DNA of 20,000 nt from an uncultured virus (IMG/VR IMGVR_UViG_3300044825_002550) (lineage: Duplodnaviria > Heunggongvirae > Uroviricota > Caudoviricetes): the IMG/VR virus record IMGVR_UViG_3300044825_002550; one strand, 5' to 3'. The position numbers and the translations under genes are program-made. The notes under the pieces were generated by a model. It saw only the letters and a program-made list of their open reading frames with translations, was not told the origin of the DNA and did no database searches. Below are positions 336 to 20,000 of the stretch, piece after piece. The stretch's first letter is position 1; each line of letters starts with the position of its first letter.

Positions 336-2132
336 ATGTCTATTAAGAATAAAGGGTTTGACCTTGATGGATTTCTTGATGATTTAGCTGATAGTATCCA
401 AGATGAGTTTGGTGCCGCAACTGAAGAGTTTAATATTGTAGACTTTGTAGAGAATCAAATAGATAAAGTTAGCTGGGGCGTTAAAGAATTAAACCCCCGT
501 CAATGGGTTCTTCTTAAAACTTTTTATAGCCTCCCTTTATCTGACGACGAAATCTCTATACTCGAGGCTTGGTACGCTCTTGACCGTACCTCCCTTAACC
601 CTATTTCTAATTACCCCCCTCAACAACCTTTCCAAGCTCTTATTGTTGAAGCTGGTCGTAGAGGTAGTAAAAGCTTTACCGCTTCTATTATTGTCGCCTT
701 TGAGTTCTGTAGACTCTGTCTTATGAAATCTCCCCAACTCTACTACGGTATTGCTACCTCTACCCCTATTTCTATCTACTGTATCGCTACTAGTGCTACT
801 CAAACTAAACGTACTATATTCGCTCAAGCAAAAGCTTTACTTGAGCACATACCTGCTATAAAAAGGTTAGTTGATAGAAAGAAAGTAATTATAGGCGAAG
901 AAGAAATAAAGTACCCTGATAAGTTGTTATATATATACAGCGGTAACTCAAATTCAGCTTCTCAGGTCGGCTCTTCTGTTATTTGCTTAGTTATGGATGA
1001 AGTGGCTAGATTTGATGACGAAGGTAAAGATAATGATGAAAGCAATGCTCTCCAATTATGGTCAAATATTGGTATCTCTGGTGTAACTTTTGGTAAAGAT
1101 GCTAAACGCATCGCTATTAGTTCCGCTTGGTGTGATGGCGATGCTATACAAAAGCTGTACAGTCTTACTAAAGAGTCTCCCGGTACTTTAGGCTTTAGGT
1201 TACGTTCTTGGGATTTAAACCCCGTACACGCCGCTAGAGACAATCCTGTAGTTCAATCTGAATATTTGTTAGACCCTAGAAAAGCTGCTCTTGAATTTGA
1301 AGGTATTCGCTTTAATAAAGCTTACTCTTTCTTTACTGATGATGATATACAAAAAGCTTTTAGAGGCTCTACTTCTATCTCTGTCTCTAAATTAAAATCT
1401 CCTGATTCTATTGTTCGCCTTCAAATTGATGATATTCTACCTACTATTAACGGTAGCGTTATGCACTTAGACCCAGCTTTCGTTCGTGATAGCTATGCCA
1501 TCGCATTTGGTCATAGAGAAACTATTAAAGGTGATAGGTTTGCTATTATTGATGGTCTTCTTGTCTGGGAACCTGATGTTAACCAACAAGTTGGTATAAC
1601 TAATATTTATAAATGCATTTATGAAATACATAACCGCCGCCCTCTATCTAAAATAACTTCTGACCACTATAACCCCGAAACCGTTCAACATCTTAGAAAT
1701 AATGGCCTAAACGCTTCCGTTATTACTTTCTCTCAAGGTAAACAACTTGAATTGTACGACTTCTTTAGAAAAATGCTTCATGAGGAGCGTGTTATTCTAC
1801 CTAATAACTCCCCTTGGTCTTCTAAGCTAAAAGATGAGCTTTTTGGTATACAATTAATAAAGGGTAAAAAGATTGATCATAGGCGAGACGGTTCTAAAGA
1901 CATCGCAGATGCTTGTGTAGCCGTAGTGTGGCATCTAATGTCAGACTTTAATTTAACAGCAACTCCTGTTAGTAACTCCGTAAAACCTACTCAACCTATA
2001 CCTTTTAAAGATGATTTAGCAGATTTAGGATTCTCTTCAGCTAAAGAGTTAGTAACTCAAGTTAAAAGATCTTATTCTAAATGGGATTCTAAATATCTTA
2101 GCGAACCTTCCTGGCTCTCTGATGATATTTAG
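336..2132 (+). CDS. terL: Phage terminase large subunit (DNA packaging ATPase-nuclease)
   Basis: Terminase-type Walker A 'AGRRGSKS' (651-674), post-Walker-A 'IATSATQTKRTIF', Walker B 'CLVMDEVARF' (~984-1013), coupling motif 'AISSA', RNase H-like nuclease acidic motifs 'MHLDPAFVRDSYAIAFGH' (from 1461), 'ITSDHY' and C-terminal 'IDHRRDGSKDIADAC'. Length (598 aa) is typical. Confidence 0.92.
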   Translation: MSIKNKGFDLDGFLDDLADSIQDEFGAATEEFNIVDFVENQIDKVSWGVKELNPRQWVLLKTFYSLPLSDDEISILEAWYALDRTSLNPISNYPPQQPFQALIVEAGRRGSKSFTASIIVAFEFCRLCLMKSPQLYYGIATSTPISIYCIATSATQTKRTIFAQAKALLEHIPAIKRLVDRKKVIIGEEEIKYPDKLLYIYSGNSNSASQVGSSVICLVMDEVARFDDEGKDNDESNALQLWSNIGISGVTFGKDAKRIAISSAWCDGDAIQKLYSLTKESPGTLGFRLRSWDLNPVHAARDNPVVQSEYLLDPRKAALEFEGIRFNKAYSFFTDDDIQKAFRGSTSISVSKLKSPDSIVRLQIDDILPTINGSVMHLDPAFVRDSYAIAFGHRETIKGDRFAIIDGLLVWEPDVNQQVGITNIYKCIYEIHNRRPLSKITSDHYNPETVQHLRNNGLNASVITFSQGKQLELYDFFRKMLHEERVILPNNSPWSSKLKDELFGIQLIKGKKIDHRRDGSKDIADACVAVVWHLMSDFNLTATPVSNSVKPTQPIPFKDDLADLGFSSAKELVTQVKRSYSKWDSKYLSEPSWLSDDI

Positions 2133-3139: not shown

Positions 3140-3170
3140 AAAGGTAGCCGCGCGGCTACCTTTTTAATTT
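3140..3170 (+). terminator. Intrinsic (rho-independent) terminator, possibly partly bidirectional
   Basis: Perfect 24-bp palindrome AAAGGTAGCCGC/GCGGCTACCTTT (3140-3163) running into TTTTTAATTT (3161-3170), about 30 nt after the ATPase stop codon. It is a GC-rich stem in an AT-rich intergenic region. Confidence 0.8.
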
Positions 3171-3295
3171 CTCTTACTTTTTCCTATACGTTAGTTTAGC
3201 TATTACTTTCTAGCCCCTCTCCTCCCTCTCTCCTTCCATCTCTTTTAACCTCTAATACTATCTTTTCTTCTACCCTCTAATACTTTCTTCCCTCT

Positions 3296-3862: not shown

Positions 3863-3918
3863 CTATCTCTCTTGTTATTCTTACGTTAAAATACACAATA
3901 TAAAAAGGTCTTAAAGGT

Positions 3919-6900
3919 ATGGAGTTAGAGTCTTTAGAACAGAATAGAAGGTCTTCATTTAGTTTAGCTGATACAGCTCAAACACTTTACCCTTCTATTA
4001 GTAATCCTTCTTCTTTAAGTTCTTTCTCCTCTTTTACCTCTAATAACCCTCAACTTTCTCTTTTTAATAATTCCTCTATATTACTAGCTTCAAATACCTC
4101 TTTAGCTTCTACTTCTACTAATACTACACCTAAACCTTTCGGCACTCTCTTAGATAAAAAACATACATTTTATAATTCACGGGACATAGGTAAAGGCTTA
4201 ATGGGATTTTTAGAAGAGTCTAAACCTAATAGTTTAAAAGGTGCTTTTTACGAACTATCCTCAAACCCACAGTTTCTTAAAGTCTTTTCTGAAAAAGCTA
4301 AAGACGATGGAATTGTTGTTTCTATGGGACCCGGTAATGTCTCTTTAACCGAGAGTATGGTAGAAAGTTCATCTATAGCACTAAACTCTATTCTGAGTCT
4401 TAAAATTATAGGTGCTTTTAATTCCGGCGTAGGAGAAATAATAAACTATGCATCTGAAAAACTTACCGGTAACCCTATATATAAAACCTCTGAAGAGCAG
4501 AAACAAAGTACAGAAAGCGTCAACACCGCTCGATTTGTTAATTCTTTGCAATATGGTTTATTAGGATACTTAGCAGAACCTGTTGTTTCTAATTCTATAA
4601 ACCTTTTCTCTACTACCCCTAAGTCAGGTTCTTTTAAACCAGGTAGTTTTGGTAGAAAGGCTTTAGTCTCTCTCTTTGTTGGTAGTCTTGGCTATGTGTT
4701 TTCTCCTACTACTATAGACTCTACACATCTTTCTGAGCTAAATACAGCTCGTATGCGCTTTATACCTAATTCAGCTTTAAAAGCTTATGGTTTAACTGTT
4801 GGCACGGATTCTGATACTCCACAACCTTCAAGAGGCAATTGGTTTCATCACGCAGTTGCTATGTTCTCTAGAACTTTTCTTTTAGGTGGTGTTGATGTTA
4901 CTAATAAAACTATACCTTATGCTGTAGAATATAGTAAGAACTCTTCTAACCAAAATCAGGTTAGTAATTATATTGTTCACTCTAAATTCTTTGTAGAAGA
5001 AGAAGGTCGCTCAGACCGTTATTTTGTGTCCACAGGTAATCTTAATACTTTAGTTGAAGTCTATAATACCCCGGCCGATAAACGACATAAACAAATTAAC
5101 TATGCTATCTCCGGTAATGACCCCCAAATCGCAAAAGACCTTAGAGAGGTAGCTACTTTTTTAGCTACCGCACAACCTTCTGATACCTTTTTACCTTTAC
5201 AGGAAAAACTTACTTCTAAGAAAGTAAGTATTGGAGGTATGGGCAGTAATTCTACACAAGAAATTATTAACTTGATACAGGAATCTAAAGGCGAAATATA
5301 CGGGGTTATGCCCTATGCAACGGACTCAGACATAGCTAACGCTTTTGTTACAGCTCAAAAACAGGGTAAAAAAGTCTCTATTTTTATTAAAAACCCCCTC
5401 GGTGTAGATGGCCAACAACAAAGCTCTAACTTTGCTAGAATTTTACTAGAAGGTGGTGTTGATGTACTAATAGTTCCAGAAAATTCTAAGGCTTTTCCCC
5501 ACGCTAAAGTTATTGCTTCTAAAGATACTCTTCACCTTGGTAGTCATAACTTCAGTAAAAACTCATCACGACATGTTGCTGAAGTTAGTTTACAGTTTAG
5601 ATCTTCAGGTATTGGTATACCCGTTATAGATGCTATAAAACAGGATATAAAGGACGACAAGGCAATCACCCTAAATAAAACTAAACTAGAAACTTTAATT
5701 AACCAAGCCGCATTAAATAAAGATTACTCAGCGCTTCGCTTATACAAAGCTATGTATCCAGAGGGGGATATAAAAGAAGCTCAAACAAGAATATCGACAA
5801 AGAATGATTTAGTTCAGTTTCTTATGCCAGATATGTTGTCTATTGGTGGCGTATTAAATAATAAGCTTAACTCCAGCGCTGTCTTTCTTCCTACTTCTAT
5901 TCCTACTGAGTACTACTCTCGTCATGGGTTTAACCTTAATAATACGCCTGATATCTACCAACATCTAAGGTACGGGTTGGATAAACAATCTTCATTGGAA
6001 AAATTCTCAGCTTTCTATGCTGATTTTGCTTTACAACACCCTTTTTCTATTGGTCTTGGTGCTTATATTAATGCTGGATTTCCTAACCTCTATAAACCTA
6101 ATGATGGTTTATTCTCTACTATTAGCAAAGGCGTAGGCCGATTCTTAGATACTCTAACTGGTCATTATACTAACATGTATTACAAAGACCTAAGAGCTGG
6201 TCTAGTTTATGGTAATATGAAAGACTTTCATAAAGCTGCTTATCGTAAAGATGACAGGCGCGGTTTCTTTGAAAGTACTTTATATACTTTTAGCTCTGCT
6301 ATGTCTAGCACTGCTTATTCCCTTGCTTTTTACTTTGGGATAACTCATAGTATCGCTATTGCCCGCGCTAAATTTGAAGATATAGGTACTGATTATATAT
6401 CTCAACTTGACTTTCAAAAAACTCCTAAGTTTATACAAAAAGTATACTTTGATGATACTACTATAAGTCGCTTGAATGTAATAAATGATGTAACTCAGGC
6501 CTTAAAAACCTCTCCTAATCCTGCACAATTAGGTAAAGTCCTAGATGAGTACTATAACTATATTATTAATGAAGCAGCTTCGACGCCCCTTTCTTTAGAC
6601 TCTGAAATTAAATCTCAGTTTGATACATTCAAAGTATCAAGTGACATTATAGATAAAGATATTAATCTAGTAAGAAATGCAATATCTACCGGCTCCTTAG
6701 ACCCCTCTGATTTAAACTCCATTGCTACTTTTAAAAAATCAACTTTTGGGGTGGATAGCACTCAAATTACTTTTAATACCTTGAGTAATCGCCCCGCCCT
6801 TTTTAATACTGTTAGCTTTCTAAGAAATATTGATAGCTCCCATTTTACTAACATCATTGAACCTATTATACGAGATATAGCTGTATACGAAGACGTTGAC

Positions 6901-9900
6901 AAAACCCTGTTTGAAAATACTTTAAGTAAATTAAAACAAAATATATCTGGGGGTATCAGTTTAATCTTTAAAAGCAACGACATCTATAATGACATTCTTA
7001 ATGTACATAACTTTGGTTATAAACGTCTGGAAGAAATAGCCAGTCAACTAGACACGTTAGCCAGTTTTATCCCTGCTAATCCTTTTCTATACTACAAACC
7101 TTATAGACAAGCTCGGGGTGTAACTACCCTTAAACAACAAAATATTACCCCAAGCGGCCAGATTATTCAAGATAGTATATCCCTTAAAAGCCTAATCGGT
7201 CCCGGCTTCTCTGGCTTGACTTCCTTTACTAATCAAGTTCTACAACAAGTAAAAGAAGTTAAATTAGATAAGTTTATATCAGAAAGCTATAATGCTTTTA
7301 CCCTACAGAACAAACTTATTAAAAATGAAGTCAAAATCGCTAGGAGAATAGATAAACTCTTAAGAAATGTAGACCCAGGTCTATTACAAGATTTAACTGA
7401 CTTAAGTAAGGGAACTTTATCAAGTCCTCTAAAAGACCTTTCAGATAATCTAAAAAATCAGCTAGGAGCAGATATTGCGGACTTGCTAGATGACCCAAAA
7501 TTACAAAGCTTAGTTGACCAATACCTTATAGATTATGAGAAGTTTTCGACAACAACAAAGTTTTATAGTAATGACTCTATAGATAAAATTAAAGATAATA
7601 GCAATAAAGGTTTAAATAAGACTTTACGTTCTGTACTTTTTTCGGCTGGTCCTATTCTTATCTTAGATAAGTTGTTAGACCCTCATGTAATGCAAAACAG
7701 CGGCGATTTAATATCTCAAATCTTTGCTGATTTTAACCTCACCCGCACTAAGGACGAAAACCGTGTAAGCCAAATAGAGTTTACTGGCGGTATACCTTTC
7801 TACTTGAAATACCCTATCATTCTATCTGGTTTTATTACCGGCGGCTACGCTTTACCTTCTCGTAAATCTACTTATAGCGCTGTCTCTCGATTAAACGCTA
7901 CTTTACAAGCACGTTACCAAAATGTTGACCTCTCTACTTTAGGTGTTACAGACTCTCTATTAAGAACTGCAGAAAAAGAACTACGTGCCGCTGCTTCTGC
8001 TGCTTCTTCTTCAACTCCAGATCTTGATAGTAACATAGCTAAATATTTATTTAGCGACCGAGGAGATAGACTAAGGTTAAAGTTCGGCTATATGGGCGCT
8101 TTTTTAGGAGGCTCCGCAGCACTTATCGCTACACAAACAGTATTTAATCTCACTGCAGCTACTCTAAACTTTATAAAATCCGTTGATAGAGGAGAAGGCC
8201 AAAAGCCTAGTTCTGAAGAGATGGCAGCAGGCCTAAAAGTTATGAGCATTATTAAAAGGTCTTTAACTACACAAAAAACCTCAAATAAAGCTACTGTTGA
8301 TGAAATTGCTTCAAGGGAAGTCTTGCGTTTAGGAGCTCTTAACCTGACTTACGGAAGGGATAAACGCCCATCTTATATCTATACCTTCTCTAGTCAAATC
8401 CCAACACCGTTATTTCAAGCTACTTTAGTTAGTAAATTTGATAAACAAGGTAGTGCTCTTACTTATGGCTTGGGTTTTCAGTTTGTTCCTATTCTCGGTT
8501 CAGGCTCTATTCCTACTGCTCCTTTTAGTATTAGTGTAAGACCTTTACGCAATACTGTAGAGGCTAAACGGGAACTATATAAAAAGTCTCTCTTATCCTT
8601 AGCTTCACCTTCATCTACCTCTGTTGACCAACTTAAACAGCAGTATGAACAACAAATGCAAATTGCTGGGTTTTTCTCTTTGTTGTCTTTTCCTGGACAA
8701 TTTTTATCTGTTGATAAAGATACTACTTTAGGTTCTGCTATAAACTTTTTAGGTGCTACTTCTTATATTTCTACTCTTGCTTCTAAACTACCTAAATCTA
8801 TAAGCTCCTCAGACAGAACTTTTAGATATCTTACTGCTTTTTCTTTTGACACTATCCGTAATCTTGTAGGCTATAGCCAATCTTTAACGGTAGCCCTGCC
8901 CAATGCTTTTCTTAAAGCTGGCACTTCTTTATTAGGCGACTCTTATATAAAAGCTATTGGCCCTAAAGCACGTAAATTTTCTCCTTTTATCCTTTCTTAT
9001 ATGTATGCTTCCGGTATTACTGCACCTGAAGGTTCTTTTTCTAACGTAGGTTCCCAATTTATAAACCCTGTAGTTAGCGAGATACACAGATTTTTTACAG
9101 CAGTAGCCCCAATAACATTAATTTACGGTTTTGGTTTACACCACGCTAAAGTCTTTAGCCGCGCTCAAGATATTAACCCCTCTGATACAGCTACTGATTT
9201 TATATCTACCAAACAAAAAGAAATTAAAAAGATCTATGAGCAAGCTACAAAGTCTCTTGACCCTTCTTTACTTAAAAACTACGAGCTACCTCTAATAAGA
9301 ACAGCTAATTTACGCCTTAATATTGCTGCTCGCCGTATTTTCTCTATTAGTGCTATACTCGGCGCGGTTGGTCTTTTGGTAAACTCTACTAACTCACAAA
9401 ATTTTAGATTTGGATTCCTTGATATTATTTCTGATTCTCAAATTAAACAGCTTAGCCCTACAGAACGCATTCTACAATCTAACTATTCTTCTGCGCGCTA
9501 TAACCCCTCCTCTTCTAGCGAAGCTTTTTCTTCTTACGCTGATTACCTTACCCGCTCTCTTCTAGGTATCTTTGGTGTACAAAACCTGTTTTATAGAGAT
9601 GACCCTAACGCTTTCCTTTCTCTTGCAGGTCCTTTTGGTATTAGTGAAACTCAACCAAATAAACTTCGCGGCTATACTCAGGCTCAAAGCTCTTCTGCTG
9701 ATATCAGTGGCTCTAAGGTTACTCTTGCCGCTCAACTTGCTAGCTCCGATTTCTCTATGCAACTTAAAGCTATGCTATCAGAAGCTAGCTCTAAAGACGA
9801 AACTACTACACAACTCTTTCACCGTCTTTTTGCTTATCCTAGAAAAGAGCCCGCTAAACTTAGCCGTTATATCTCTCAAAGTGAATATGGATTAATTAGA

Positions 9901-12900
9901 AACAGCAGCCACGCTTTCCAAACTGCTATTACTATACGCGAATATCAACTACAACATCTTAAACATCAAAGACCTATTGAACTAGCTTATACCTTACTAA
10001 AAGAGCTCTACGCCTCCGGAAGAATTGACCAGGCTAATACACGTATACCTTTTAGCTATACTCCTCTGGATTCTCTCCCTAAAATGTATGCTACTGTAGG
10101 TACTAACTACTCTAATTCTTCTTTAAACTTAATTAGCAGAGTCACTTCACTTCTTAAAGGCTTTACTTCTAACTCACAAACCCCTATTGGTTTAGAAGAT
10201 ATTGCTGCGAAACAATACAAAGAAACAACCAGCCAAATACCTTTTTTAGGTTACTTTTTTGATACTTTTAAAGACGTTGCTAGTTCTCTATCTGGTAACT
10301 CCTCTATCTCTAGCGGCTTGGCTTTGGCTGTTCAATCTATTCCCCTTGCTACTTTTACACTTGGCGGTATTATTGCTGTCGGCTCTCAAACTCTAACTTC
10401 TCTCTATGCTATTCAAACAGGTAATGTCCTTAAATCTACTACTAATGAACTTAACACTGTTAGAACTAACTTAGAGCAAGTTTCAAAGATAAAATTCTCC
10501 TTTGACAGTTCATCTCAAAAGTTAAAACTTAATAATACTGTTATAAACAATTCTATTACTGATGTTCTTAATGAAACTCATCTTACTTCAGGTATACAAA
10601 ATGCTCACAATTCTCTATTCAATATTGACTTTATTGATAAAGAGATACAATCAGATATACGTGATGTTTCTAGACTTAAAAACCAGCTAAATACAACTTC
10701 TGACTTGGCTTTAAAACAAACTCTAACAGACGATATTAATACAAAAGCAAAACAGTTAACTGATAAGTTAAAAACCAAACTGACTGATTTCTTAGACACA
10801 GACGTTACTATCTCTACTACTCAGACAAAAAAAGTTTATGAGTTACTAGATATAACTGATGATATGAGAAATTTATTAGAAAACAAAGTTGATAGTATTC
10901 TGACTGAACTAACCTCTATTATAGATAGTACTCAGTTAGATGAGGTTTTGGACCCTCGCATAAAAAAGGCTTTAGGTTCTGCCTTATTACAACTACAAAA
11001 GGATATATATAGTCAAGCTAATTTACCTCCTGTACAAAAACCTAATCCTCAAACTAGTAGCTTGTCTTCAACTGTAGCCCGCGCTGATAAAACTGCTTCT
11101 ATTCCTGTCAAAAATCTTAACTCTATTATTCAACAACGCGGTATTACTGGCCTTGTTTTACAATCCTCTCAAGGCGCTTTTAGTCTAGCTTCTAAATTCC
11201 AAGATTTACATGGCCCTTATGAAGTCCTCTCTGGCTTAACTTTAGCTATCTCCTCTACTAACCGTCTTCAAAAATATCAGGGTGCTTACGCTGCTTCTTC
11301 TGGCTTAATAACTACAGCCGCCGCTTTTGCGGCTATGTTGGCTATTAACAGCTTTGGTGTTAGCGCCCTTCCTCTTATGATTGCTATGGGCCTTGGTGTT
11401 TGGGGCTTTACTTCTTGGGATTCTACTTTTAATAATAAACGCTTTACTAGATCAGCTTTATCTACTATGCTTGCTATAGATAAAGCAGTATTTGACCCTG
11501 TTCGCTACGGCACGGCTAACCTTTTATATAATCTCCCTACTATACCTTTTTTAGGCCCCATTTCTCACTTTCCCTTCTCTCTGTTTGACTCTTTTCTTAA
11601 TAACATTTACTCCTCTTCTTTTGTATCCGAAAACCCTAACGTTCAAATGGGTTTATCTTTCATTTTGCCAGAAACACCTCAACGGTATGACCTCTTTAGA
11701 ATGAGTAAAGTCCCTAACTCTTATACCTTTGCAGGCCCTAGACAAGAAATCCTCTCTTACGATGAATACCTTAAAACTATTGCTAGTAACTATCAACAAA
11801 ATGTACAACGCGCAGCTTCATACAAACCTAATATAGACCCTCTTGTTCATCCTTACCTTCAAGGATCCGTTTATACAGGTAATCCATTTGTAGATGAACC
11901 CTACCTCTCCCCCTCTCGGGGAGGTGGGCGCTCTCGTCTTTTATCTAAATTTGCTAACCCCCCAGCTATCTCTAATATCCTTCGTATTGCTATTGGACTT
12001 CGATCCTCTCAATCAGACTTTGACACTTATGGCGCATCTATTTACCGCTCTTATAATAAACCTAAAAACCCTCTTATAGGTTTTGGTCAGTCCGCCTTTC
12101 TTAACGCAGCGCGCGCTGGGTTTTTTCTTAATAACAATATCTTTAGCTTCTCTACCGAAACTATTTCTAAAGCTTCTAGCTTTATATCCAAACATCTCGT
12201 TGAACCGGCTGGCTCTTTTTTTGCTTCTCTTTATAAAAACCTTTACACTCAACGCGGCGCTACTTTTTTTAACAACCACTTGTCACCGGCTATTAAAGGG
12301 TCCTCTTTAGCAACTCTCATTATAAGTGGTATTGAATTTTATAACCCTAATACTGACCCTTTATCCCAAATTGGCATTGGTGTTCTTGGCAGCACCGCTT
12401 TTACTGTTATTGCTGACCGACTCCAAAAACATCTTCGTTCTAAGGCTTTAACTCCTAATACTGTATCCTCTTCTTCCTTTTTTGGTTCTACTTTTAGCTT
12501 TTTAAAAAGACCCATAACACAAGTTTTCGGTTTAGGTTTAGGTGCTTCTCTTTTAGCTCTTGGTTTGTTTACAACCCCTCAAAATAAAAATGATAAAAAC
12601 GCTCAAACTCTAAAAAATACCCTTCAAATCTCTGGGGGTATTCTTACTGCCGCTTCTGCTGTACCTCTTAGTATACGCCTGTTTAAATCTCTTCCTTTTA
12701 AGTCTTTGCCCCCTAATATTCTTAGGTTAGCACCCCGAACCCTTTTTGGCTTGGGTGTTGGATATTTTGCCTATAAAGGGTTTAATAGTATTAATCCTAA
12801 GCAAGAGGACCAACAGTTTAATATATTAGCTTCAGGTAGTATAGGTTTAGCGTCTTCTGTTTTTAGTCCTTCTATTCTTAAACTTTTTAAAAATAATCCA

Positions 12901-15900
12901 CGTATTGGTCTTTCTCTTCTTAGCACAGGCCTATTTACTGGCGTAGCACGCCTTGCTGTAAACAGATTTAAACCACAATCAAGCGAAAATGAGCAAATTA
13001 TAACCTCTTTAGCTGTGGGGGTAGGTATTACTGCTGTAGGTAATTTAGCTTTACCCCGTTTGATGGGCCTTTTCTCTAAGTTCTCTTCTTCTTCTTCTCC
13101 AAGCTTAGCTCCTTCTAGCACCAGCACTTCTAGGTCTTCTATTTTTATTGATACCTTAAAAAAGGTTGTTAAGCCAGCACTCACTTTTGGTCGTCGCGCC
13201 GCTGGGTTTTTTAGTAACTTTATCCGCTTTTTAGGTAACCCCGCTTTACTCACTCTTATTGACTTTCAAATAACTTTTGGTAATATTGAACGTCTTAATA
13301 ATCTTGAAAAACATAAACGAGATAGAGTAAACTACCGCTCCGAGTACTCTACCGCTATCGGCGCTGCAGCAAGCTCTTTGGCATTTACTGCTTCCTATTC
13401 TGCTATCTCTAAGTTCGGCGGCTCTAATTATAAAACTCTTTTTGCTTCATTTATTATTTCAAGTATTGTTGGTCTTTTTGCTTCTCACTTAGGTAAACAA
13501 TTCGGCGACGCAGCTTACTACGAATCAAGAGGAATGCAAGATAAATATTCTAATAATTGGGCGTATAACTTCTCTAAGTTTATTTTCCCATCCTCTAAAG
13601 CTAATGCTAACGATAATAATCTTGCATCCCCTTCTTCCTATACTAAAGACGCGGTTAATAATATTCTTTTAACTACATTTGTTATTAATAATCTTTTTAA
13701 TTTATGGATGGGAGTTAGAAATTGGAAATCTGTAGCTAAAGCCTCTTCTACACTTGGCTCTACCCCCGGCCCTGTCCCCGGTGACGACGGAGATATCCCA
13801 GGTAGCTCTACTCCTCCTACGGGCCCCGGTGACGACGGAGATATCCCAGGTAGCTCTACTCCTCCTACGGGCCCCGGTGACGCCGCTGATAGCTCCCGTA
13901 GACGCTACCACCGCCGCCGCTACGGCCCCCGTAGCGCCTCTAGTAGCAGCGGTGCTAGCTTCTTTAAAAGAGCCAGTAGTCGCCCTAGTAGCAGCGGTGG
14001 CTCCGGCCCTGTCCCCGGTGATGACGCTGATAGCTCCCGTAGACGCTACCGCCGCCGCCGCTACGGCCCCCGTAGCGCCTCTAGTAGCAGCGGTGCTAGC
14101 TTCTTTAAAAGAGCCAGTAGTCGCCCTAGTAGCGGCGGTGGATCTTTCCCTGGGTTCGACGTTGGCGTTGCCCCCAAGGTCGAAGACCTTGAGTCTTTTA
14201 CTTCCTCTACTCCTAATAGTAAATTAAAGATTAAATATTTAGAAACAGATAGACTTAAAGGTACAACTATTGCGTCTCAAACTGTTAATTCTGCCGATGA
14301 AGTTTATAATAAACTAACTACTAAATACAGTTCTAGTTTGGATGGCAAACAATATGACAAGCTATCTGATATAGTTAAAGAAAAACTGACCCCTAGTGTT
14401 ATTCATGGGGGTAATGAATTTGTTACTATGGGGTATGTAGATACAACTGGTAATTACAGCGCGCTTTCTGTCTCATATCAAGATACTAAGAGTGGCAGAA
14501 TTGTAACCAAAATCTTTTACGCTGAAGGTACAGATAAATCCGTTATGGATTCTCTTATAAAAGAAAGCGGCGTAGATACTAAAAAAGACTGGCGGTCTTT
14601 TACTCACACATCCCCAGATTTTAAAACCGTTGATTTTACCCCCTCTTCCCCTCTTCAACCTTCTAGTGCACAACCTCCTACCCGTAGTATCCTAGTATTA
14701 GAAGAAGGTAAAGGTATACAAGAACTTAATAATAAGGCTTTCCAACATAGTAGTAACCTAAAACTTGGTTATGTTCATTGGATTCATAACCTATCTAGAA
14801 ATAATATAAATTTGGATATAGAAAAAAAATCCGCCGGGGCTGTTTTTTCTCCTTTAAAAGGGTTTGGTCAACAGCTTAGCTTACTTATACATCAAACTCT
14901 TCATCTAGATAGCTTTTACAAACCTTTTAGTATACCTAACACACCTAACACGGGACCACACCCCCCAAAATCGGGGGCGCCAGCTACAGCCAGTAAAACA
15001 GGTATACCGGAACCACCTCCACCCCCAAAACGGGCGCCAGCTACAACCAGTAAAACACTTATACCGGAACCACCTCCACAAGAAGTAAAAACCATACAAA
15101 GTGCTAGCAAACTGCAGCCCGGCGCTTCTATTAACATAGATAACCTTCGTATCGATGAGTTTAGTACTGGAATAAAGCTTGTCCCGGGTAAAGGGTTTGT
15201 AGGAGGTAAAGAAACAGAGTTTGTATCTGCGGGTTTTACAGGGGAATTTGAAAAGTCAACTCTAACACCGGAAGATCATTCAAAAATACTAGGACAAGGT
15301 AGTAAATTTAATGAGTCAATTTTAACCGTTAAACCCGACGCGGTAAACCAGTTAGGAATTTCATCAGAAGACAAAGTTAGCCCTATACTTACAGGCACAG
15401 TTGTAGAAATAGATGGAGAACAACGAGCTTTTCTATCTGTTTCTTCTGCCTTTAAAGACGAATCGGGTAGATCAAGCGCTGGGGCTAGAATATTTACTGC
15501 AAAAGGTGGTAATGAGTCTTTATTAGCTTTAGTAAACTATTGGGAAGAACACGGAAATCCATCTTTTGAAATGAACCCTAGTAGAGCACCACAACCTGTT
15601 TTTTACAATACTACTGTATCTTTAGATTTAGTTTCGTACTCTTCAGTCCCTAATAGTAATCTTTTAAACCCGGGTACTCTTACAGTAAAACAAGCTGCAA
15701 GTGAGAGTTTTTTACTAGCAGAGAGTACGGGTAATTTAGCTTCTTTTGAGTATAACGCTGCACCTTTAAGTTTATCAAGAATAGCCAAAGCTCAATTTAT
15801 ACAACCAATAAACACGAAATCATATCTGATTATAAGTAAGGACCAAAAAAAAGTAAAACCTATACATTACTACAAAAACTTCACAGAAATTAAGACTAGC

Positions 15901-18900
15901 TTAAATGCTATTTTAAACAGAGCAATTCCTAAAGAGCAAGACATTACATTTTTCAAGTCCGAAATTGCTAAGAATCCAAACTTAAAACAAGACATCTTAC
16001 CACTACTTGAAGATCAGGGACTAGACCAAATTAAGAAGGAGTTTAAAAAAACTACTGTTAAAAGCCAATTGGCTTTTAGTACAAAGCATATTAATTTACT
16101 ATCTTTCTATAACGAGATTACTTCAGAAACTGAATTTAAGGATTCTTATTCTGACTACGTTACAAAAGCTAACCAGAATGCTGGAGGTTTATCTAAAGAA
16201 GCTAAAGACAACGCGCGCGCTATGAAAACGTGGCAAGATACATACAATAAATTTAGCGGCGGCGGCGGCGGTCCTAGTAGTAGTACATTTACAGGCGAGT
16301 TTGGTGCTGAACAAGATCCTACGTTGTCTTGGCTAGATAACTACGATGATAGTAGGTCTATACACGCAACGCTAATACCTTTTGATTTTCAGTATTTTAA
16401 TAAACAATTTAGGTCGCTATTAAGTTTTGGAAAACAAAAGATAGCTCCTGGCATTATTTCAGTCTCTTCTTCTGCTTACTCTTTCTTCTCTGACCTATCT
16501 AAATCTTCTTTTAGCTCAATCCGTGCTGCCTCTAATAAAGTCTCTTCTATCTTTAAACCAAGTCCTCGTCTTTCTGTTTCTTACACTGCACCTCGTCCTT
16601 CTCCAACTTATAGACCCAAACCTTTTGGTGTTCTTCGCTCTCGCTCTCATAACTTATTTAGACGATTCTATAGACCTACTCCTTCCGTCCCTAAAGCTCC
16701 TCCTACTCCTAACTCTAATATTAGTATTCAAAAAGGTGGTGTATTAACTGGGCTAAGTATTTTTGCTCTTAGTACCCTTCTTATAAACGACAAAGACCAA
16801 AACTCTCAAGCTCTTAGAACAACCCTTCAAATAGGTGGCGGCATGTTAGCTGTTACTTCTCTTTTAGCTCCGCTTTTGCAAAATAAGTATGTGCAACGGT
16901 CTTTAGACTCTGTAGGCTATCTTTTCTTTGTTCATAACACTCTTCAAACTATCTCTTCTGTTCTTACTCTTAATAGAGAAGTCTCCTTAAAAAATGATAA
17001 CCCTCTTGTTTCAACTTATCGCCGTTTGGGTTTATTAGACCCACACAATGATTCTTATTATTATGATATCAAATCAGCTTCTAGAAGAATGGGGTCTACT
17101 TTAGTAGATATTATGGCTAGAGGTATAGACTCTATATTCTACCCAGCTAACTTTTTTCTAGGTATAGCTGTATCTTCATTAACTTCTTATTTTAGTGGAC
17201 CTGTAAAAGCTTTAGTAGGAGATTACCTAGAAAGTGAAATGCTTAAACATGGTATGTACAACGCTACCCCCCGAGCCCTTGCTAATTTATCCAAAGAAGC
17301 CGGTGAGGGCGCAATGGCAGGTGGCGCTATAGGGGCCGCCGCTAGTGTTTTAGCTCTTCTTGGACTAGGCGCCGCTAGTGCTTTGTCCGGCGGTACTGCT
17401 CTTCCTGCTACTGTCCCTGTTATGTTAGGTATTGTTGGTGGTAGCACTGCTGTAGGCGCCGGTAGTGGTTTTCTAATTAACTTCCATGCTGGCACTAATC
17501 GCTATAGCCAACAACGACGCATTTCCAGACTTAGATCTTATGCTATTCAAAACGCTATCGCTAGCTCCTACGCCTCTAATTCCGCTTCTAGTTCAGATAT
17601 CTACGATAATCAAGGTTTAGACCCCCAATTCTATCCGGGTAGTATCTCTTTTTCTAATTATGGACATAAGGATCCGTCCGGAGGTAATAAGGATCAGCAA
17701 TACAACATAAGCTCTTTTGCAGAAGCTTATCCCCACCATGCTGTATTTAGAAGAAAGCGCAGTCAATCTCTTTTTTATGTAAACAGCCGAGGTGAAAAAG
17801 TACCTCATGAAGTACAAGAACATATAGGACCAGACGGTACTACACGCGAATTTGTAAAGCTAGATATTACTCTTCGTAAGGGCGGCCGTATGATAGGTGT
17901 TGAATTGCCTAGCTTTGCTACTGGTTATGCAAAAGTAGTCAGTGCGGGTAAAAACTCTTATGTGAGTATATATAAAGATCGGGAGATGACAAAATTTCTA
18001 GGTAGGGCGATACATATACGAGCTACAGTACGTACAGGGCAAAAGGTTTTCTTTGGGCAGATAATAGGTACACAATATCCAGATGGGGATAACACTCATA
18101 CTGACTTAACTCTTTTACCAGAAACTTATGACCGCTATTTTAAGGCTTTAAAAACTGGAAATTGGGGTAATAACTTACCCCCCGCTCTAATTCCACCACC
18201 TTCTGCACAACCTCAAAACCAATCTACTTCAACTGTTACTCAAGGACGTAACCTTTTAACACCAGAACTATATAATAGGCTTACACCTAAAGGTAAGCTG
18301 TATTACGACAATCTTAGAACTAATCCGGCTATACTTGCCCTTGCAGATGCTGTAGCGCGCGCGGAGGGGACCGATTTTAGGAATAACTCTGTAAATTTTG
18401 GATATGGATATATTATTGGGGGCTCTAACATTGAACTATCTAAACTTAATAATATACAACACCCTTTTGTAGCTCCAGCTGGGCATACTCCTTTACGACG
18501 TAGAGCGGACCACCTGTCTACGGCATCGGGTAGATATCAAGCTTTAGATTTTGTTTATGCAAGAGTAGCAAGTATGAACCATAATGCCCCAGACTTAGCT
18601 AAAATGTTTGAAGGTGTAGACCGCCGCATACCTATAAACTCTTTTTCTCCAGGTGTCCAAGATTTAATGTTTATTTACTCTCTTGAAAAGCGGGGTATAC
18701 TACAGGATGTAATTGATGGAAACTTCTCAGAGGCTGTTCTTGATAAACTATCCAGAGAATATACTAGTATTACTATTACTAGAAATTATGGGGGGCATGG
18801 AACTCCTGAAGGTAGGAAAAATAATTTCATTAGGTTCTTAATGGACAGATACAGAATTCGTCAAGCAGAACAGCTTAGGTCTAAAACACCAAATACTAAT

Positions 18901-19434
18901 ACACAAGCAAAAACACCTAAGAACTCTACTAATACTCAAGCAAAAACACCTAAGGACACTGCTAATATACAGCCGCGCGCTGTTTTTTCTCCTAAACCTT
19001 CTTCTCCTTACTCTCTTTCCCCCCAACAACAACAGGATATTATCTCAGCTAACTCTGGTCTTTCTTTTTCTGAACTTGAAGCAATTAACAGGGAACTAGA
19101 CTTAGGTATATCCTACCTTCAATCTTCTAAACGTAAAATCTCTAAAATAAACGCTCGTGTTATGTTATCCTCTGCTCAAGGCGGTCAATCTCCTAAACAC
19201 CCTCAGCATCCTCAATCTAATCCTTATTCTAGCCGCCCTACCACTGCTGTAGCCGTCCTTACCCCTAACCCTGACTCTCCTATCCCTTCTATTTCTTTAA
19301 AAGTGTCAGAGGATGATACAAATAATCTTCATCTCTCCTCTGACCCTCTTGCTTATTTATCCTTTGTTGATAGACAGGTTTTTCTCTCTGATATTAATTA
19401 CTTTATGTCCGCTGACTATGCTGACATTGTTTAA
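3919..19434 (+). CDS. Giant (5171 aa) multidomain virion protein, tape-measure/ejection-protein-like, with PLD-like, M23-like and lambda-lysozyme-like domains
   Basis: Uninterrupted 15,516-nt ORF in AT-rich DNA with consistent codon bias, and AAAAGG/AAAGG purine tracts just upstream of the ATG. Two HxK motifs (HSKFF...STGNLN at 4978; HAKVI...GSHNFS at 5500), many Gly/Ala-rich hydrophobic helices, M23-like 'VRTGQKVFFGQIIGTQ', and lysozyme motifs 'AEGT', 'STASGRYQ', 'FSPGVQD'. The CDS itself is secure; the functional label is inference. Confidence 0.85.
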   Translation: MELESLEQNRRSSFSLADTAQTLYPSISNPSSLSSFSSFTSNNPQLSLFNNSSILLASNTSLASTSTNTTPKPFGTLLDKKHTFYNSRDIGKGLMGFLEESKPNSLKGAFYELSSNPQFLKVFSEKAKDDGIVVSMGPGNVSLTESMVESSSIALNSILSLKIIGAFNSGVGEIINYASEKLTGNPIYKTSEEQKQSTESVNTARFVNSLQYGLLGYLAEPVVSNSINLFSTTPKSGSFKPGSFGRKALVSLFVGSLGYVFSPTTIDSTHLSELNTARMRFIPNSALKAYGLTVGTDSDTPQPSRGNWFHHAVAMFSRTFLLGGVDVTNKTIPYAVEYSKNSSNQNQVSNYIVHSKFFVEEEGRSDRYFVSTGNLNTLVEVYNTPADKRHKQINYAISGNDPQIAKDLREVATFLATAQPSDTFLPLQEKLTSKKVSIGGMGSNSTQEIINLIQESKGEIYGVMPYATDSDIANAFVTAQKQGKKVSIFIKNPLGVDGQQQSSNFARILLEGGVDVLIVPENSKAFPHAKVIASKDTLHLGSHNFSKNSSRHVAEVSLQFRSSGIGIPVIDAIKQDIKDDKAITLNKTKLETLINQAALNKDYSALRLYKAMYPEGDIKEAQTRISTKNDLVQFLMPDMLSIGGVLNNKLNSSAVFLPTSIPTEYYSRHGFNLNNTPDIYQHLRYGLDKQSSLEKFSAFYADFALQHPFSIGLGAYINAGFPNLYKPNDGLFSTISKGVGRFLDTLTGHYTNMYYKDLRAGLVYGNMKDFHKAAYRKDDRRGFFESTLYTFSSAMSSTAYSLAFYFGITHSIAIARAKFEDIGTDYISQLDFQKTPKFIQKVYFDDTTISRLNVINDVTQALKTSPNPAQLGKVLDEYYNYIINEAASTPLSLDSEIKSQFDTFKVSSDIIDKDINLVRNAISTGSLDPSDLNSIATFKKSTFGVDSTQITFNTLSNRPALFNTVSFLRNIDSSHFTNIIEPIIRDIAVYEDVDKTLFENTLSKLKQNISGGISLIFKSNDIYNDILNVHNFGYKRLEEIASQLDTLASFIPANPFLYYKPYRQARGVTTLKQQNITPSGQIIQDSISLKSLIGPGFSGLTSFTNQVLQQVKEVKLDKFISESYNAFTLQNKLIKNEVKIARRIDKLLRNVDPGLLQDLTDLSKGTLSSPLKDLSDNLKNQLGADIADLLDDPKLQSLVDQYLIDYEKFSTTTKFYSNDSIDKIKDNSNKGLNKTLRSVLFSAGPILILDKLLDPHVMQNSGDLISQIFADFNLTRTKDENRVSQIEFTGGIPFYLKYPIILSGFITGGYALPSRKSTYSAVSRLNATLQARYQNVDLSTLGVTDSLLRTAEKELRAAASAASSSTPDLDSNIAKYLFSDRGDRLRLKFGYMGAFLGGSAALIATQTVFNLTAATLNFIKSVDRGEGQKPSSEEMAAGLKVMSIIKRSLTTQKTSNKATVDEIASREVLRLGALNLTYGRDKRPSYIYTFSSQIPTPLFQATLVSKFDKQGSALTYGLGFQFVPILGSGSIPTAPFSISVRPLRNTVEAKRELYKKSLLSLASPSSTSVDQLKQQYEQQMQIAGFFSLLSFPGQFLSVDKDTTLGSAINFLGATSYISTLASKLPKSISSSDRTFRYLTAFSFDTIRNLVGYSQSLTVALPNAFLKAGTSLLGDSYIKAIGPKARKFSPFILSYMYASGITAPEGSFSNVGSQFINPVVSEIHRFFTAVAPITLIYGFGLHHAKVFSRAQDINPSDTATDFISTKQKEIKKIYEQATKSLDPSLLKNYELPLIRTANLRLNIAARRIFSISAILGAVGLLVNSTNSQNFRFGFLDIISDSQIKQLSPTERILQSNYSSARYNPSSSSEAFSSYADYLTRSLLGIFGVQNLFYRDDPNAFLSLAGPFGISETQPNKLRGYTQAQSSSADISGSKVTLAAQLASSDFSMQLKAMLSEASSKDETTTQLFHRLFAYPRKEPAKLSRYISQSEYGLIRNSSHAFQTAITIREYQLQHLKHQRPIELAYTLLKELYASGRIDQANTRIPFSYTPLDSLPKMYATVGTNYSNSSLNLISRVTSLLKGFTSNSQTPIGLEDIAAKQYKETTSQIPFLGYFFDTFKDVASSLSGNSSISSGLALAVQSIPLATFTLGGIIAVGSQTLTSLYAIQTGNVLKSTTNELNTVRTNLEQVSKIKFSFDSSSQKLKLNNTVINNSITDVLNETHLTSGIQNAHNSLFNIDFIDKEIQSDIRDVSRLKNQLNTTSDLALKQTLTDDINTKAKQLTDKLKTKLTDFLDTDVTISTTQTKKVYELLDITDDMRNLLENKVDSILTELTSIIDSTQLDEVLDPRIKKALGSALLQLQKDIYSQANLPPVQKPNPQTSSLSSTVARADKTASIPVKNLNSIIQQRGITGLVLQSSQGAFSLASKFQDLHGPYEVLSGLTLAISSTNRLQKYQGAYAASSGLITTAAAFAAMLAINSFGVSALPLMIAMGLGVWGFTSWDSTFNNKRFTRSALSTMLAIDKAVFDPVRYGTANLLYNLPTIPFLGPISHFPFSLFDSFLNNIYSSSFVSENPNVQMGLSFILPETPQRYDLFRMSKVPNSYTFAGPRQEILSYDEYLKTIASNYQQNVQRAASYKPNIDPLVHPYLQGSVYTGNPFVDEPYLSPSRGGGRSRLLSKFANPPAISNILRIAIGLRSSQSDFDTYGASIYRSYNKPKNPLIGFGQSAFLNAARAGFFLNNNIFSFSTETISKASSFISKHLVEPAGSFFASLYKNLYTQRGATFFNNHLSPAIKGSSLATLIISGIEFYNPNTDPLSQIGIGVLGSTAFTVIADRLQKHLRSKALTPNTVSSSSFFGSTFSFLKRPITQVFGLGLGASLLALGLFTTPQNKNDKNAQTLKNTLQISGGILTAASAVPLSIRLFKSLPFKSLPPNILRLAPRTLFGLGVGYFAYKGFNSINPKQEDQQFNILASGSIGLASSVFSPSILKLFKNNPRIGLSLLSTGLFTGVARLAVNRFKPQSSENEQIITSLAVGVGITAVGNLALPRLMGLFSKFSSSSSPSLAPSSTSTSRSSIFIDTLKKVVKPALTFGRRAAGFFSNFIRFLGNPALLTLIDFQITFGNIERLNNLEKHKRDRVNYRSEYSTAIGAAASSLAFTASYSAISKFGGSNYKTLFASFIISSIVGLFASHLGKQFGDAAYYESRGMQDKYSNNWAYNFSKFIFPSSKANANDNNLASPSSYTKDAVNNILLTTFVINNLFNLWMGVRNWKSVAKASSTLGSTPGPVPGDDGDIPGSSTPPTGPGDDGDIPGSSTPPTGPGDAADSSRRRYHRRRYGPRSASSSSGASFFKRASSRPSSSGGSGPVPGDDADSSRRRYRRRRYGPRSASSSSGASFFKRASSRPSSGGGSFPGFDVGVAPKVEDLESFTSSTPNSKLKIKYLETDRLKGTTIASQTVNSADEVYNKLTTKYSSSLDGKQYDKLSDIVKEKLTPSVIHGGNEFVTMGYVDTTGNYSALSVSYQDTKSGRIVTKIFYAEGTDKSVMDSLIKESGVDTKKDWRSFTHTSPDFKTVDFTPSSPLQPSSAQPPTRSILVLEEGKGIQELNNKAFQHSSNLKLGYVHWIHNLSRNNINLDIEKKSAGAVFSPLKGFGQQLSLLIHQTLHLDSFYKPFSIPNTPNTGPHPPKSGAPATASKTGIPEPPPPPKRAPATTSKTLIPEPPPQEVKTIQSASKLQPGASINIDNLRIDEFSTGIKLVPGKGFVGGKETEFVSAGFTGEFEKSTLTPEDHSKILGQGSKFNESILTVKPDAVNQLGISSEDKVSPILTGTVVEIDGEQRAFLSVSSAFKDESGRSSAGARIFTAKGGNESLLALVNYWEEHGNPSFEMNPSRAPQPVFYNTTVSLDLVSYSSVPNSNLLNPGTLTVKQAASESFLLAESTGNLASFEYNAAPLSLSRIAKAQFIQPINTKSYLIISKDQKKVKPIHYYKNFTEIKTSLNAILNRAIPKEQDITFFKSEIAKNPNLKQDILPLLEDQGLDQIKKEFKKTTVKSQLAFSTKHINLLSFYNEITSETEFKDSYSDYVTKANQNAGGLSKEAKDNARAMKTWQDTYNKFSGGGGGPSSSTFTGEFGAEQDPTLSWLDNYDDSRSIHATLIPFDFQYFNKQFRSLLSFGKQKIAPGIISVSSSAYSFFSDLSKSSFSSIRAASNKVSSIFKPSPRLSVSYTAPRPSPTYRPKPFGVLRSRSHNLFRRFYRPTPSVPKAPPTPNSNISIQKGGVLTGLSIFALSTLLINDKDQNSQALRTTLQIGGGMLAVTSLLAPLLQNKYVQRSLDSVGYLFFVHNTLQTISSVLTLNREVSLKNDNPLVSTYRRLGLLDPHNDSYYYDIKSASRRMGSTLVDIMARGIDSIFYPANFFLGIAVSSLTSYFSGPVKALVGDYLESEMLKHGMYNATPRALANLSKEAGEGAMAGGAIGAAASVLALLGLGAASALSGGTALPATVPVMLGIVGGSTAVGAGSGFLINFHAGTNRYSQQRRISRLRSYAIQNAIASSYASNSASSSDIYDNQGLDPQFYPGSISFSNYGHKDPSGGNKDQQYNISSFAEAYPHHAVFRRKRSQSLFYVNSRGEKVPHEVQEHIGPDGTTREFVKLDITLRKGGRMIGVELPSFATGYAKVVSAGKNSYVSIYKDREMTKFLGRAIHIRATVRTGQKVFFGQIIGTQYPDGDNTHTDLTLLPETYDRYFKALKTGNWGNNLPPALIPPPSAQPQNQSTSTVTQGRNLLTPELYNRLTPKGKLYYDNLRTNPAILALADAVARAEGTDFRNNSVNFGYGYIIGGSNIELSKLNNIQHPFVAPAGHTPLRRRADHLSTASGRYQALDFVYARVASMNHNAPDLAKMFEGVDRRIPINSFSPGVQDLMFIYSLEKRGILQDVIDGNFSEAVLDKLSREYTSITITRNYGGHGTPEGRKNNFIRFLMDRYRIRQAEQLRSKTPNTNTQAKTPKNSTNTQAKTPKDTANIQPRAVFSPKPSSPYSLSPQQQQDIISANSGLSFSELEAINRELDLGISYLQSSKRKISKINARVMLSSAQGGQSPKHPQHPQSNPYSSRPTTAVAVLTPNPDSPIPSISLKVSEDDTNNLHLSSDPLAYLSFVDRQVFLSDINYFMSADYADIV
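4180..5650 (+). other. Two-lobed phospholipase D (HKD) superfamily domain within the giant ORF
   Basis: Lobe 2 is close to canonical: 'EIINLIQESKGEIYGVMPYATDSDIANAFVTAQKQGKKVSIFI...LLEGGVDV...PHAKVIASKDTLHLGSHNFS...AEVSLQF'. The lobe 1 catalytic part is 'VHSKFFVEE...YFVSTGNLN...INYAISGNDPQIAKDL'. The Asp of HxKxxxxD is not at the canonical position in either lobe. Confidence 0.8.
13776..13882 (+). repeat. In-frame 48-bp tandem repeat (2 full copies + partial), encoding PGDDGDIPGSSTPPTG
   Basis: CCCCGGTGACGACGGAGATATCCCAGGTAGCTCTACTCCTCCTACGGG at 13776 and 13824; a partial third copy starts at 13872. Confidence 0.95.
13885..14141 (+). repeat. In-frame duplication with 141-bp period, encoding ADSSRRRY(H/R)RRRYGPRSASSSSGASFFKRASSRPSS
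   Basis: GCTGATAGCTCCCGTAGACGCTACC... begins at 13885 and again at 14026; the copies are nearly identical over ~115 bp. Confidence 0.95.
14976..15079 (+). repeat. In-frame duplication with 57-bp period, encoding Pro-rich APAT(A/T)SKT(G/L)IPEPPP
   Basis: GGCGCCAGCTACA(G/A)CCAGTAAAACA...ATACCGGAACCACCTCCAC at 14976 and 15033. Confidence 0.9.
17720..18170 (+). other. Divergent M23 peptidase-like domain within the giant ORF
   Basis: 'KLDITL...GVELPSFATGYAKVVSAGKNSYVSIY...FLGRAIHIRATVRTGQKVFFGQIIGTQYPDGDNTHTDL' follows the M23 pattern D..V....G.V....N.V.I....H...V..G..V..GQ.IG......HxH, except that HxH reads HTD. Confidence 0.6.
18320..18860 (+). other. Lambda-lysozyme-like (phage R endolysin/lytic transglycosylase type) domain within the giant ORF
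   Basis: 'ALADAVARAEGTD' (candidate catalytic Glu codon at 18364), 'GYGYIIGG', 'HP', 'STASGRYQ' (18517) and 'SFSPGVQD' match the lambda R motifs (xEGT, STAAGRYQ, DFSPxSQD) in the right order. Confidence 0.88.
18883..18966 (+). repeat. Short degenerate in-frame repeat (KTPNTNTQAKTPKNSTNTQAKTPKDTAN), likely linker
   Basis: AAAACACC occurs three times and ACTAATAC(A/T)CAAGCAAAAACACCTAAG twice. Confidence 0.8.
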
Positions 19435-19438
19435 CTAT

Positions 19439-20000
19439 AGCGCGCGCTGCTTGTAGCTCTTTATATATACTACTTTTGGACAAACTCTTAGCAGCTGCGC
19501 GTAGCCTGCGCGCTGCTTGTAACTCTTTATATATACTATTTTAGACGGAGGTTAAGCTGCGCTCTGGTACTCGCTACGTAGCCTGCGCGCTGCTGCTAAG
19601 AGGTTGTCCAAATATTTCTTTCTACTTTATATATACTATTTTTGGACGGAGGTTAAGCCGCGCTCCGGTACTCGCTACGTAGCCTGCGCTCTGCTGTAGC
19701 GTTGTCCAAATCTTTCTTTCTACTTTATATATACTATTTTTGGACGGAGGGTAAGCCACGCTCCGGTACTCGCTGCGTAGCCTGCGCGCTGCTTGTAGCG
19801 TTGTCCAAATATTTCTTTCTACTTTATATATACTATTTTTGGACGGAGGTTAAGCCGCGCTCCGGTACTCGCTGCGTAGCCTGCGCGCTGCTTGTAACTC
19901 TTTATATATACTATTTTAGACGGAGGTTAAGCTGCGCTCTGGTACTCGCTACGTAGCCTGCGCGCTGCTGCTAAGAGGTTGTCCAAATATTTCTTTCTAC
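19439..20000. repeat. Non-coding tandem repeat array of ~66-100 bp modular, palindrome-rich units; continues beyond the window
   Basis: The anchor CTTTATATATACTA starts at 19459, 19525, 19625, 19723, 19822 and 19900 (spacings 66, 100, 98, 99, 78), and the next is expected at 20000. Full unit is approximately CTTTATATATACTATTTTTGGACGGAGGTTAAGCCGCGCTCCGGTACTCGCT(A/G)CGTAGCCTGCGCGCTGCTTGTAGCGTTGTCCAAATATTTCTTTCTA. Confidence 0.95.

Follow-up and report, generated by a model that had tools for sequence, protein, structure and literature searches.

A giant protein of a lake cyanophage carries a truncated homologue of a cyanobacterial GTPase-linked membrane protein, a candidate decoy

The window analysed here comprises 20,000 nucleotides, the final 20 kb of a 72,317-base, roughly 51% complete record of an uncultured virus (IMG/VR IMGVR_UViG_3300044825_002550), and contains an open reading frame for a giant protein of 5,171 residues. 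Directly behind a proline-rich linker, as an earlier reading of the letters alone (the sequence-only reading) had noted, this protein bears a module homologous to the N-terminal part of a cyanobacterial membrane protein that we call X, whose genes lie behind genes for DO-GTPase-like proteins. The features of the locus are as follows.

3919..19434, + strand: open reading frame of the giant protein, 5,171 residues, bearing the captured module
14900..15120, + strand: Pro-rich linker ahead of the module, seen in the translation and varying both in sequence and in length (runs X9 and X12 have longer forms)
15130..15573, + strand: captured N-domain, residues 3738-3885, GAP1-N-like with a predicted longin/TagF-type fold (hidden Markov model built from cellular sequences only, E 1.8e-10)
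15574..16023, + strand: captured middle alpha/beta domain of host X together with the first of its helices, residues 3886 to ~4035 (full-length cellular profiles)
336..2132, + strand: terminase large subunit (phrog_2, E 7.8e-12), a context gene
5263..5607, + strand: PLD-like domain, residues 449-563 of the giant protein (Pfam PLDc_2, E 1.8e-11)
18316..18972, + strand: lysozyme-like domain near the C terminus of the giant protein, residues ~4800-5018 (phrog_90 endolysin, E 6.6e-12)

The motif series from which the sequence-only reading proposed a host-derived domain is present where it was placed, with EFSTGI starting after I3745, in frame in the open reading frame 3919-19434. The purine enrichment that it described also holds, with 55.8% in 15130-15600 against 46.0% in the open reading frame and none of 32 tiled 471-nucleotide windows reaching 55.8%. 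A tblastn search against plasmids returned seven records, all cyanobacterial, which are 30-34% identical across 76-93% of the query sequence (lowest E 2e-6). With an alignment seeded from four of these homologues, 7,995 candidates were scored and 622 proteins retrieved, of which 120 are listed. To guard against circularity, profiles were built from cellular sequences only, with the phage left out. When the 72-kb contig was scanned as 763 six-frame segments with the profile of 120 cellular N-domains, the giant open reading frame was the sole significant match (E 1.8e-10), its domain scoring 44.7 bits compared with 8.3 for the top of 2,000 shuffles, and a more diverse cellular profile (146 sequences) matched the phage module with an E value of 3.3e-15. 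Because a full-length cellular profile aligns its positions 5-290 of 762 with residues 3738-4034 (window 15130 to ~16020, E 5.6e-11), the captured piece measures about 300 residues; the proposed start at 15130 stands, and the proposed extent of 157 residues was too short. The second half of the module gave a weaker signal when tested alone, ranking first of the 763 segments with an E value of 0.03 and 15.9 bits (best of 2,000 shuffles, 10.5). These sequence comparisons confirm homology between the phage module and the N-terminal ~290 residues of X. It ends near X residue 290, and the membrane segment of X (median start at residue 531) and its outer domain are absent from the phage copy, which by sequence is a fragment of X lacking the membrane anchor and not a complete X.

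Searches with the phage domain as a single sequence found no match in a 5.8-billion protein set (none of 996 and none of 22 candidates) or in annotated phages, PDB sequences and the Atlas, and the N-domain matched nothing in NCBIfam, PHROGs or PADLOC. Further downstream in the giant protein, PHROGs gave one weak match (phrog_36245, E 0.003). A Pfam match of the phage to Fpg-like_C (E 0.004, under the cut-off) was taken as chance, as were matches of 28 and 34 residues in two loci (L006 and L075). The top pairwise scores are mostly to Nostocales where a source is named, but they span only 27-41 bits, and with a tree support of 0.145 no donor lineage stands out.

X has about 700 residues, and the cellular homologues anticipated for the module are cyanobacterial wherever record titles name a source (7 of 7 plasmid records and 33 of 33 genome loci). 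All 120 listed proteins have the motif within their first 5-15 residues, which bears out the idea that it marks a protein N terminus; the suggested restriction to filamentous cyanobacteria does not hold, because the sources include Gloeothece, Xenococcus and Microcystaceae records. A hydrophobic segment is found in 109 of 111 full-length X proteins, and one X protein has a C-terminal peptidoglycan-binding domain over the cut-off. X would thus consist of a cytoplasmic N-terminal part and an outer variable part. No X match was found in PADLOC. Tandem copies of X occur in 12 of 41 loci, with arrays of two to four genes in L010, L015, L019, L022, L035, L040 and others, and some X proteins contain internal partial repeats of the N-terminal motif.

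The neighbourhoods, whose inspection for GTPases the sequence-only reading had called for, place X genes behind DO-GTPase-like genes. Three of these (G1-G3) precede X, and a gene Y and vWA genes lie downstream. Of the 33 genome loci, 29 have a homologue of G1, 30 of G2, 30 of G3 and 26 of Y; vWA genes occur in 25, IMS-domain genes in 19 and serine-hydrolase genes in 10. Several of these loci are cut by contig ends, and the members of two pairs (L017/L018 and L010/L022) do not count as independent. The gene order is the same in eight further stretches around divergent or extra X matches. By a strict test a GTPase adjoins X in 35 of 41 loci; of the six misses, three concern divergent X genes, which another comparison places next to one. 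The top Pfam match is DO-GTPase1 or DO-GTPase2 for all six cassette GTPases tested (three exceed the cut-off), and the DxxGE form of Walker B is kept in all three GTPase alignments. In the available text of Kaur et al. 2020 (PMC7159879), this conserved Glu in Walker B is the mark of DO-GTPases; as P-loop GTPases with that residue, the G1-G3 sequences qualify as DO-GTPases. The cassette GTPases have weak Roc, Ras and Gtr1_RagA matches as well. X is present in 19 of 301 cyanobacterial genomes (~6%), compared with two for GAP1-N2 and one for GAP1-N1. A divergent cassette type (L058, L059, L060) begins with a radical-SAM gene and, in L058, has an AAA ATPase after it.

The suggestion that the domain is GAP1-N-like stands in part. 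Pfam gave no GAP1-N1 (PF20012) match for the phage or X proteins, with a control positive in none of the 14 genomes there, though the model finds one in 301; no GAP1-N2 (PF20013) match for the phage, or for the X genes of five genomes at E <= 10, with a positive control in C. glutamicum; and no GAP1-M score for the phage piece. By Pfam score, X is thus not a strict member of GAP1-N1 or GAP1-N2. Profile-profile comparison of X with two GAP1-N2 sequences gave P 0.044 around the D..GR hairpin and with five GAP1-N1 sequences P 0.43, in a test of low power whose N1-versus-N2 control fails (P 0.9). What points towards a GAP1 relative is the Atlas and the fold. The Atlas feature neighbours of X 1-330 are cyanobacterial clusters and then, beyond cyanobacteria, GAP1-N1, N2 or M clusters (0.84-0.86, leads only), and its structural neighbours are an actinobacterial cluster (GAP1-M 11%, GAP1-N2 10%; template modelling score 0.61 over 278 residues) followed by TagF_N clusters. 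X 1-400 was modelled at a predicted local distance difference test (pLDDT) of 88.7 as a beta-rich domain (5-141), a small alpha/beta domain (165-230) and a helical domain (242-399), which agrees with the N-M-C three-domain build of GAP1, both sides of this comparison being predicted models.

Gene position gives a further likeness. In the available text of PMC7159879, GAP1 lies directly downstream of its GTPase, as X does of DxxGE GTPases, and GTPase-GAP1 binding is inferred from co-evolution; X also shares the three N-terminal domains, the membrane segment, the variable end and the vWA neighbours. The two systems differ in that the GTPases of the X cassette number three, where GAP1 systems have one or two, and lack zinc ribbons, in that no GASH or FNIII match was found in the X cassette proteins scanned, and in that X is cyanobacterial, a group from which the same text describes DO-GTPase/GAP1 systems as nearly absent. 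The phage, in turn, holds a truncated X and no GTPase. From gene position, Atlas neighbours and the predicted longin/TagF-like fold, we consider X probably to be a third, cyanobacterial type of GAP1 that works like GAP1.

The best structural match of X residues 3-229 is the two-domain TagF of Acinetobacter (9t0n; Z 7.0, root-mean-square deviation (rmsd) 4.2, 195 aligned), and Foldseek places TagF at ranks 1-3 (E 0.007-0.009) and FLCN-FNIP2 at rank 4, with none below E 0.001. TagF (PF09867; PDB 9t0n, 6iz8) is a type VI secretion repressor; X shares only 9-16% identity with it and has no type VI secretion context, so the likeness is one of fold and membership in TagF was rejected. The model of the phage N-domain has a mean pLDDT of 63.6 (core 73-90). 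Most of its top structural rows are longin/uDENN regulators of Rag and Rab GTPases (FLCN-FNIP2, GATOR1/SEA, Mon1-Ccz1, SRX and the Loki Roadblock-Longin protein; Z 4.5-6.2), led by 8yqg (Z 6.2, rmsd 3.9, 114 aligned) and including SRX (1nrj, Z 5.9), GATOR1 (5.9), FLCN (5.7) and SEA (5.7). Longin rows dominate the top 20, in which a PAS row reaches Z 5.9, and Foldseek gave none below E 0.001; the Z scores are middling and the phage domain carries no sequence signal of these regulators. The weak Roc/Ras/Gtr1_RagA matches of the host GTPases are a further likeness. No match extended to a complete DENN module, DENND1A (Z 4.3) aligning across the longin part only. According to a preprint (10.64898/2026.10.19.760177, available text, citing unpublished observations), profilin-longin-like domains often accompany GTPases in systems against selfish elements.

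The terminase shares 33-35% identity with its closest annotated relatives, those of Microcoleus phage My-WqHQDG and Ma-LMM01-type Microcystis phages, and by sequence places the phage near the Ma-LMM01-like cyanophages, in keeping with the cyanobacterial host that had been proposed. It is followed by an ABC-type ATPase gene, a gene for a product of 188 residues and then the giant gene. A giant gene has the same post-terminase position in Ma-LMM01 (gp120, 2,898 residues) and My-WqHQDG (WOL31340, 4,151 residues), and both products have weak sequence similarity to the 5,171-residue protein, which is likely virion-associated; the accessible part of PMC5780444 makes no mention of gp120.

The module was found only in close kin of this phage. 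One of these (G007, L005) matches the window without a difference across 14,880 bases and gives no independent evidence, and two others with a 100% identical terminase (G005 and G006) carry a second allele with 86% protein identity. The complete giant protein of G002 (5,264 residues; terminase 68%) aligns with both flanks and has 890 residues between them compared with 1,548 in the window. Comparison with related giants, a check that the sequence-only reading had asked for, did not find the module in G002, gp120 or My-WqHQDG at E <= 10; G001, G003 and G004 end before the module region and were excluded from presence or absence. Instead of the module, the G002 giant (L052:8496-20000, - strand) has at its C-terminal end polysaccharide deacetylase, amidase_2, phage lysozyme and non-specific endonuclease domains, all well over the Pfam cut-off, which suggests that phage giants are modular carriers. 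A search with profiles for nine further genes of the cassette (E <= 0.05) found none in the phage sequences examined, the phage record being incomplete; as no other cassette gene was detected, the phage piece should not work there as a phage-borne copy of the cassette.

Between the window and G005 the module has 91% nucleotide identity, compared with 99.7% and 99.5% for the flanks (residues 3290-3640 and 4111-5171), and the differences run over residues ~3750-4090, close to the module limits. The module is intact in frame, with a synonymous rate (dS) of 0.17, a non-synonymous rate (dN) of 0.076 and a ratio of 0.45. The hydrophobic core and the hairpin D..R are kept in both assembled alleles, and no frameshift in the module was seen among the variants listed from four runs (40 of 92 rows, including all 39 of X4). 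A third allele occurs in runs X4 and X6, one contig each; a metagenome scan over half of the collection gave no additional allele. In its module 18 of 23 changed codons are non-synonymous, matching a neutral expectation of 0.77. At 10 of the 18 non-synonymous sites the three alleles have three different residues (p 1.3e-5 versus uniform change), or at 7 of 15 if a gapped loop is excluded (p 9e-5), and these sites include the two hairpin positions that lie between its invariant D and R. They fit repeated change at a binding surface, but also a limited set of tolerant sites.

One alternative is that the module, once captured from X, now helps in the assembly or ejection of the virion as a domain that binds proteins in general, for instance by contacting tail-tube subunits as TagF binds Hcp (10.64898/2025.12.08.692957, available text). 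The TagF match of X 3-229 agrees with such a role, as does the tail sheath of the Ma-LMM01-like phages that are its closest named relatives by terminase. We nevertheless judge it unlikely: the sequence derives from X and not from TagF, three related giants do without the module, and it is more variable than its flanks, unlike an assembly contact.

The reading that we prefer, and to which we would give nearly an even chance, is that the module, taken from the host and carried in with the virion, acts as a dominant-negative decoy against the three-GTPase switch, a predicted defence system. This is in line with the virion-delivered mimic that the sequence-only reading had inferred. The host cassette would sense phage or envelope disturbance through the outer part of X, and the N-terminal part of X would bind the GTPases and pass the signal on to them. 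The giant protein would be ejected at infection, bringing the module into the cytoplasm, where the anchorless copy would occupy the GTPases or the partner Y and block the signal; the phage copy would keep the binding face yet be unable to pass the signal on. Homology to X, truncation before the membrane segment, the DO-GTPase context, the failure to find the module in three related giants, structural rows that are mostly longin domains partnering small GTPases, the lack of a match to other cassette genes in the phage sequences examined and higher variation than the flanks all support a decoy, and we count for it the patchy spread of X (19 of 301 genomes, seven plasmid records, tandem copies in 12 of 41 loci). 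Delivery with the virion is suited to a phage family whose giants carry cell-wall hydrolases. A precedent is the tape-measure/RNA polymerase protein of Thermus phage P23-45 (PMC10770324), a phage protein of about 5,000 residues carrying functional domains; the cargo here differs in being a truncated host signalling part, and the present giant carries no tape-measure assignment.

The same contact could instead turn the host cassette on, the module acting as a mimic of an exchange or hydrolysis factor that promotes envelope remodelling for DNA entry or excludes competing phages. Longin domains are partners of GTPases, and longin and DENN-type modules regulate small GTPases (PMC3521125, available text); the IMS, serine-hydrolase and peptidoglycan-binding parts of host cassettes also point to the envelope. 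Activation seems improbable to us, in that reliance on a cassette present in 19 of 301 genomes would narrow the host range and related phages manage without the module.

Several observations weigh against a decoy. The dN/dS of 0.45 is not above 1, and the third allele sits at the neutral expectation (p = 1.0). Between the alleles of the window and G005, divergence is far higher over most of residues 300-3280 (dS ~1, ratio 0.2-0.5); since these N-terminal two-thirds vary so much more, plain recombination can account for the variable island. It is only against uniform variation that the three-state sites reach significance, and if about one-third of sites were tolerant, arithmetic gives 6-7 of 18 as the expectation. 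With only ~30% identity to host sequences, a branch of 3.4 substitutions per site and 29 of 62 well-conserved family columns kept, the phage copy may have lost the binding face. Z scores of 6-7 lie in the range that the tool calls common, with PAS and beta-lactamase rows close behind. The cassette occurs in only ~6% of sampled cyanobacteria. The defence role of DO-GTPase systems is itself a prediction in the available text of PMC7159879.

Some of this would equally describe an old passenger that recombination brought in and that now drifts under weak constraint, the modular giant putting up with it as a folded spacer. The long branch, the loss of about half of the conserved family residues, the near-neutral ratio in the third allele and a G002 giant that has other add-on domains in place of the module would all follow from it. 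What it explains less well is that the two-domain span still aligns over 290 residues after ~3 substitutions per site, that dN/dS is 0.45 at a dS of 0.17, and that the core and the hairpin D..R persist with no frameshift among the listed variants. We hold a passenger to be on the unlikely side, though one to be reckoned with.

More doubtful than a decoy as such is the larger proposal built on it, which we offer as a possibility short of our expectation: that the cassette represents a third class of DO-GTPase/GAP1 immunity, not described before, in which a longin-fold partner controls three GTPases as a switch in the manner of the eukaryotic Rag-FLCN/GATOR pairs, that the phage carries its cytoplasmic half on an injected giant as a dominant-negative mimic whose surface is continually re-tuned against host variants, and that this would amount to genetic evidence for an anti-phage role of DO-GTPase systems. 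Mimicry of host defence components by phages is known in general. Full-text literature searches, judged by titles and abstract starts and with most subscription papers outside them, found no description of this cassette, of a GAP1-longin link or of a phage-borne GAP1 fragment, and no experimental test of DO-GTPase/GAP1 systems.

For the decoy reading, the module offers a ready 300-residue fragment as a candidate inhibitor, together with a phage group with which to challenge the cassette. The host data place a GAP1-like system in ~6% of sampled cyanobacterial genomes, where the earlier paper found such systems nearly absent, and linking GAP1-N to the longin/TagF fold suggests a possible bacterial parallel of eukaryotic longin-GTPase regulation. 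If the decoy reading is true, the giant virion proteins of Ma-LMM01-like bloom phages would carry counter-defence cargo that helps to set host range.

Parts of the stretch are present in 20 public runs from 17 studies labelled freshwater, lake, plankton or aquatic, with one subsurface; three of the runs may be sources of the record, and no RNA run is listed among them. When window 1-19500 was compared with 351 and 121 cyanobacterial genomes in search of host spacers, the 12 short matches that came up all lay outside CRISPR-like arrays. The ABC-type ATPase (2246-3109) has HEC-03B (E 3e-30), NsnB and AriA as its top PADLOC matches and is kept in G001-G004. Another giant protein, of 4,460 residues (G000:C1:10972-24354, - strand), showed no detectable similarity to the 5,171-residue protein.

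Within the giant gene, the stretch 3919-13760 compared between identical-terminase phages (window versus G005, L051) alternates between blocks with dS ~1 and blocks that are 98-100% identical, and the G005 giant has ~600 extra residues near its N terminus. As residues 300-3280 are so much more divergent than the near-identical blocks, the giant gene is a recombination mosaic. Window 13750-14230 holds GC-rich repeats encoding Pro/Gly/Asp repeats and two Arg-rich runs, with direct repeats of 129 and 59 nucleotides. Window 14116-14740 (residues ~3400-3600), ahead of the linker, looks globular, is nearly identical between alleles and has by eye a hairpin like that of the module; a second longin-like repeat there was not supported, the region having no N-domain profile score and no Pfam match. 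Ahead of the lysozyme-like domain, window ~17850-18200 resembles by eye a degenerate M23 peptidase, and a Pfam scan of it gave no match. Downstream of the giant gene, window 19499-20000 consists of tandem imperfect repeats of ~98 nucleotides that run up to the contig end.

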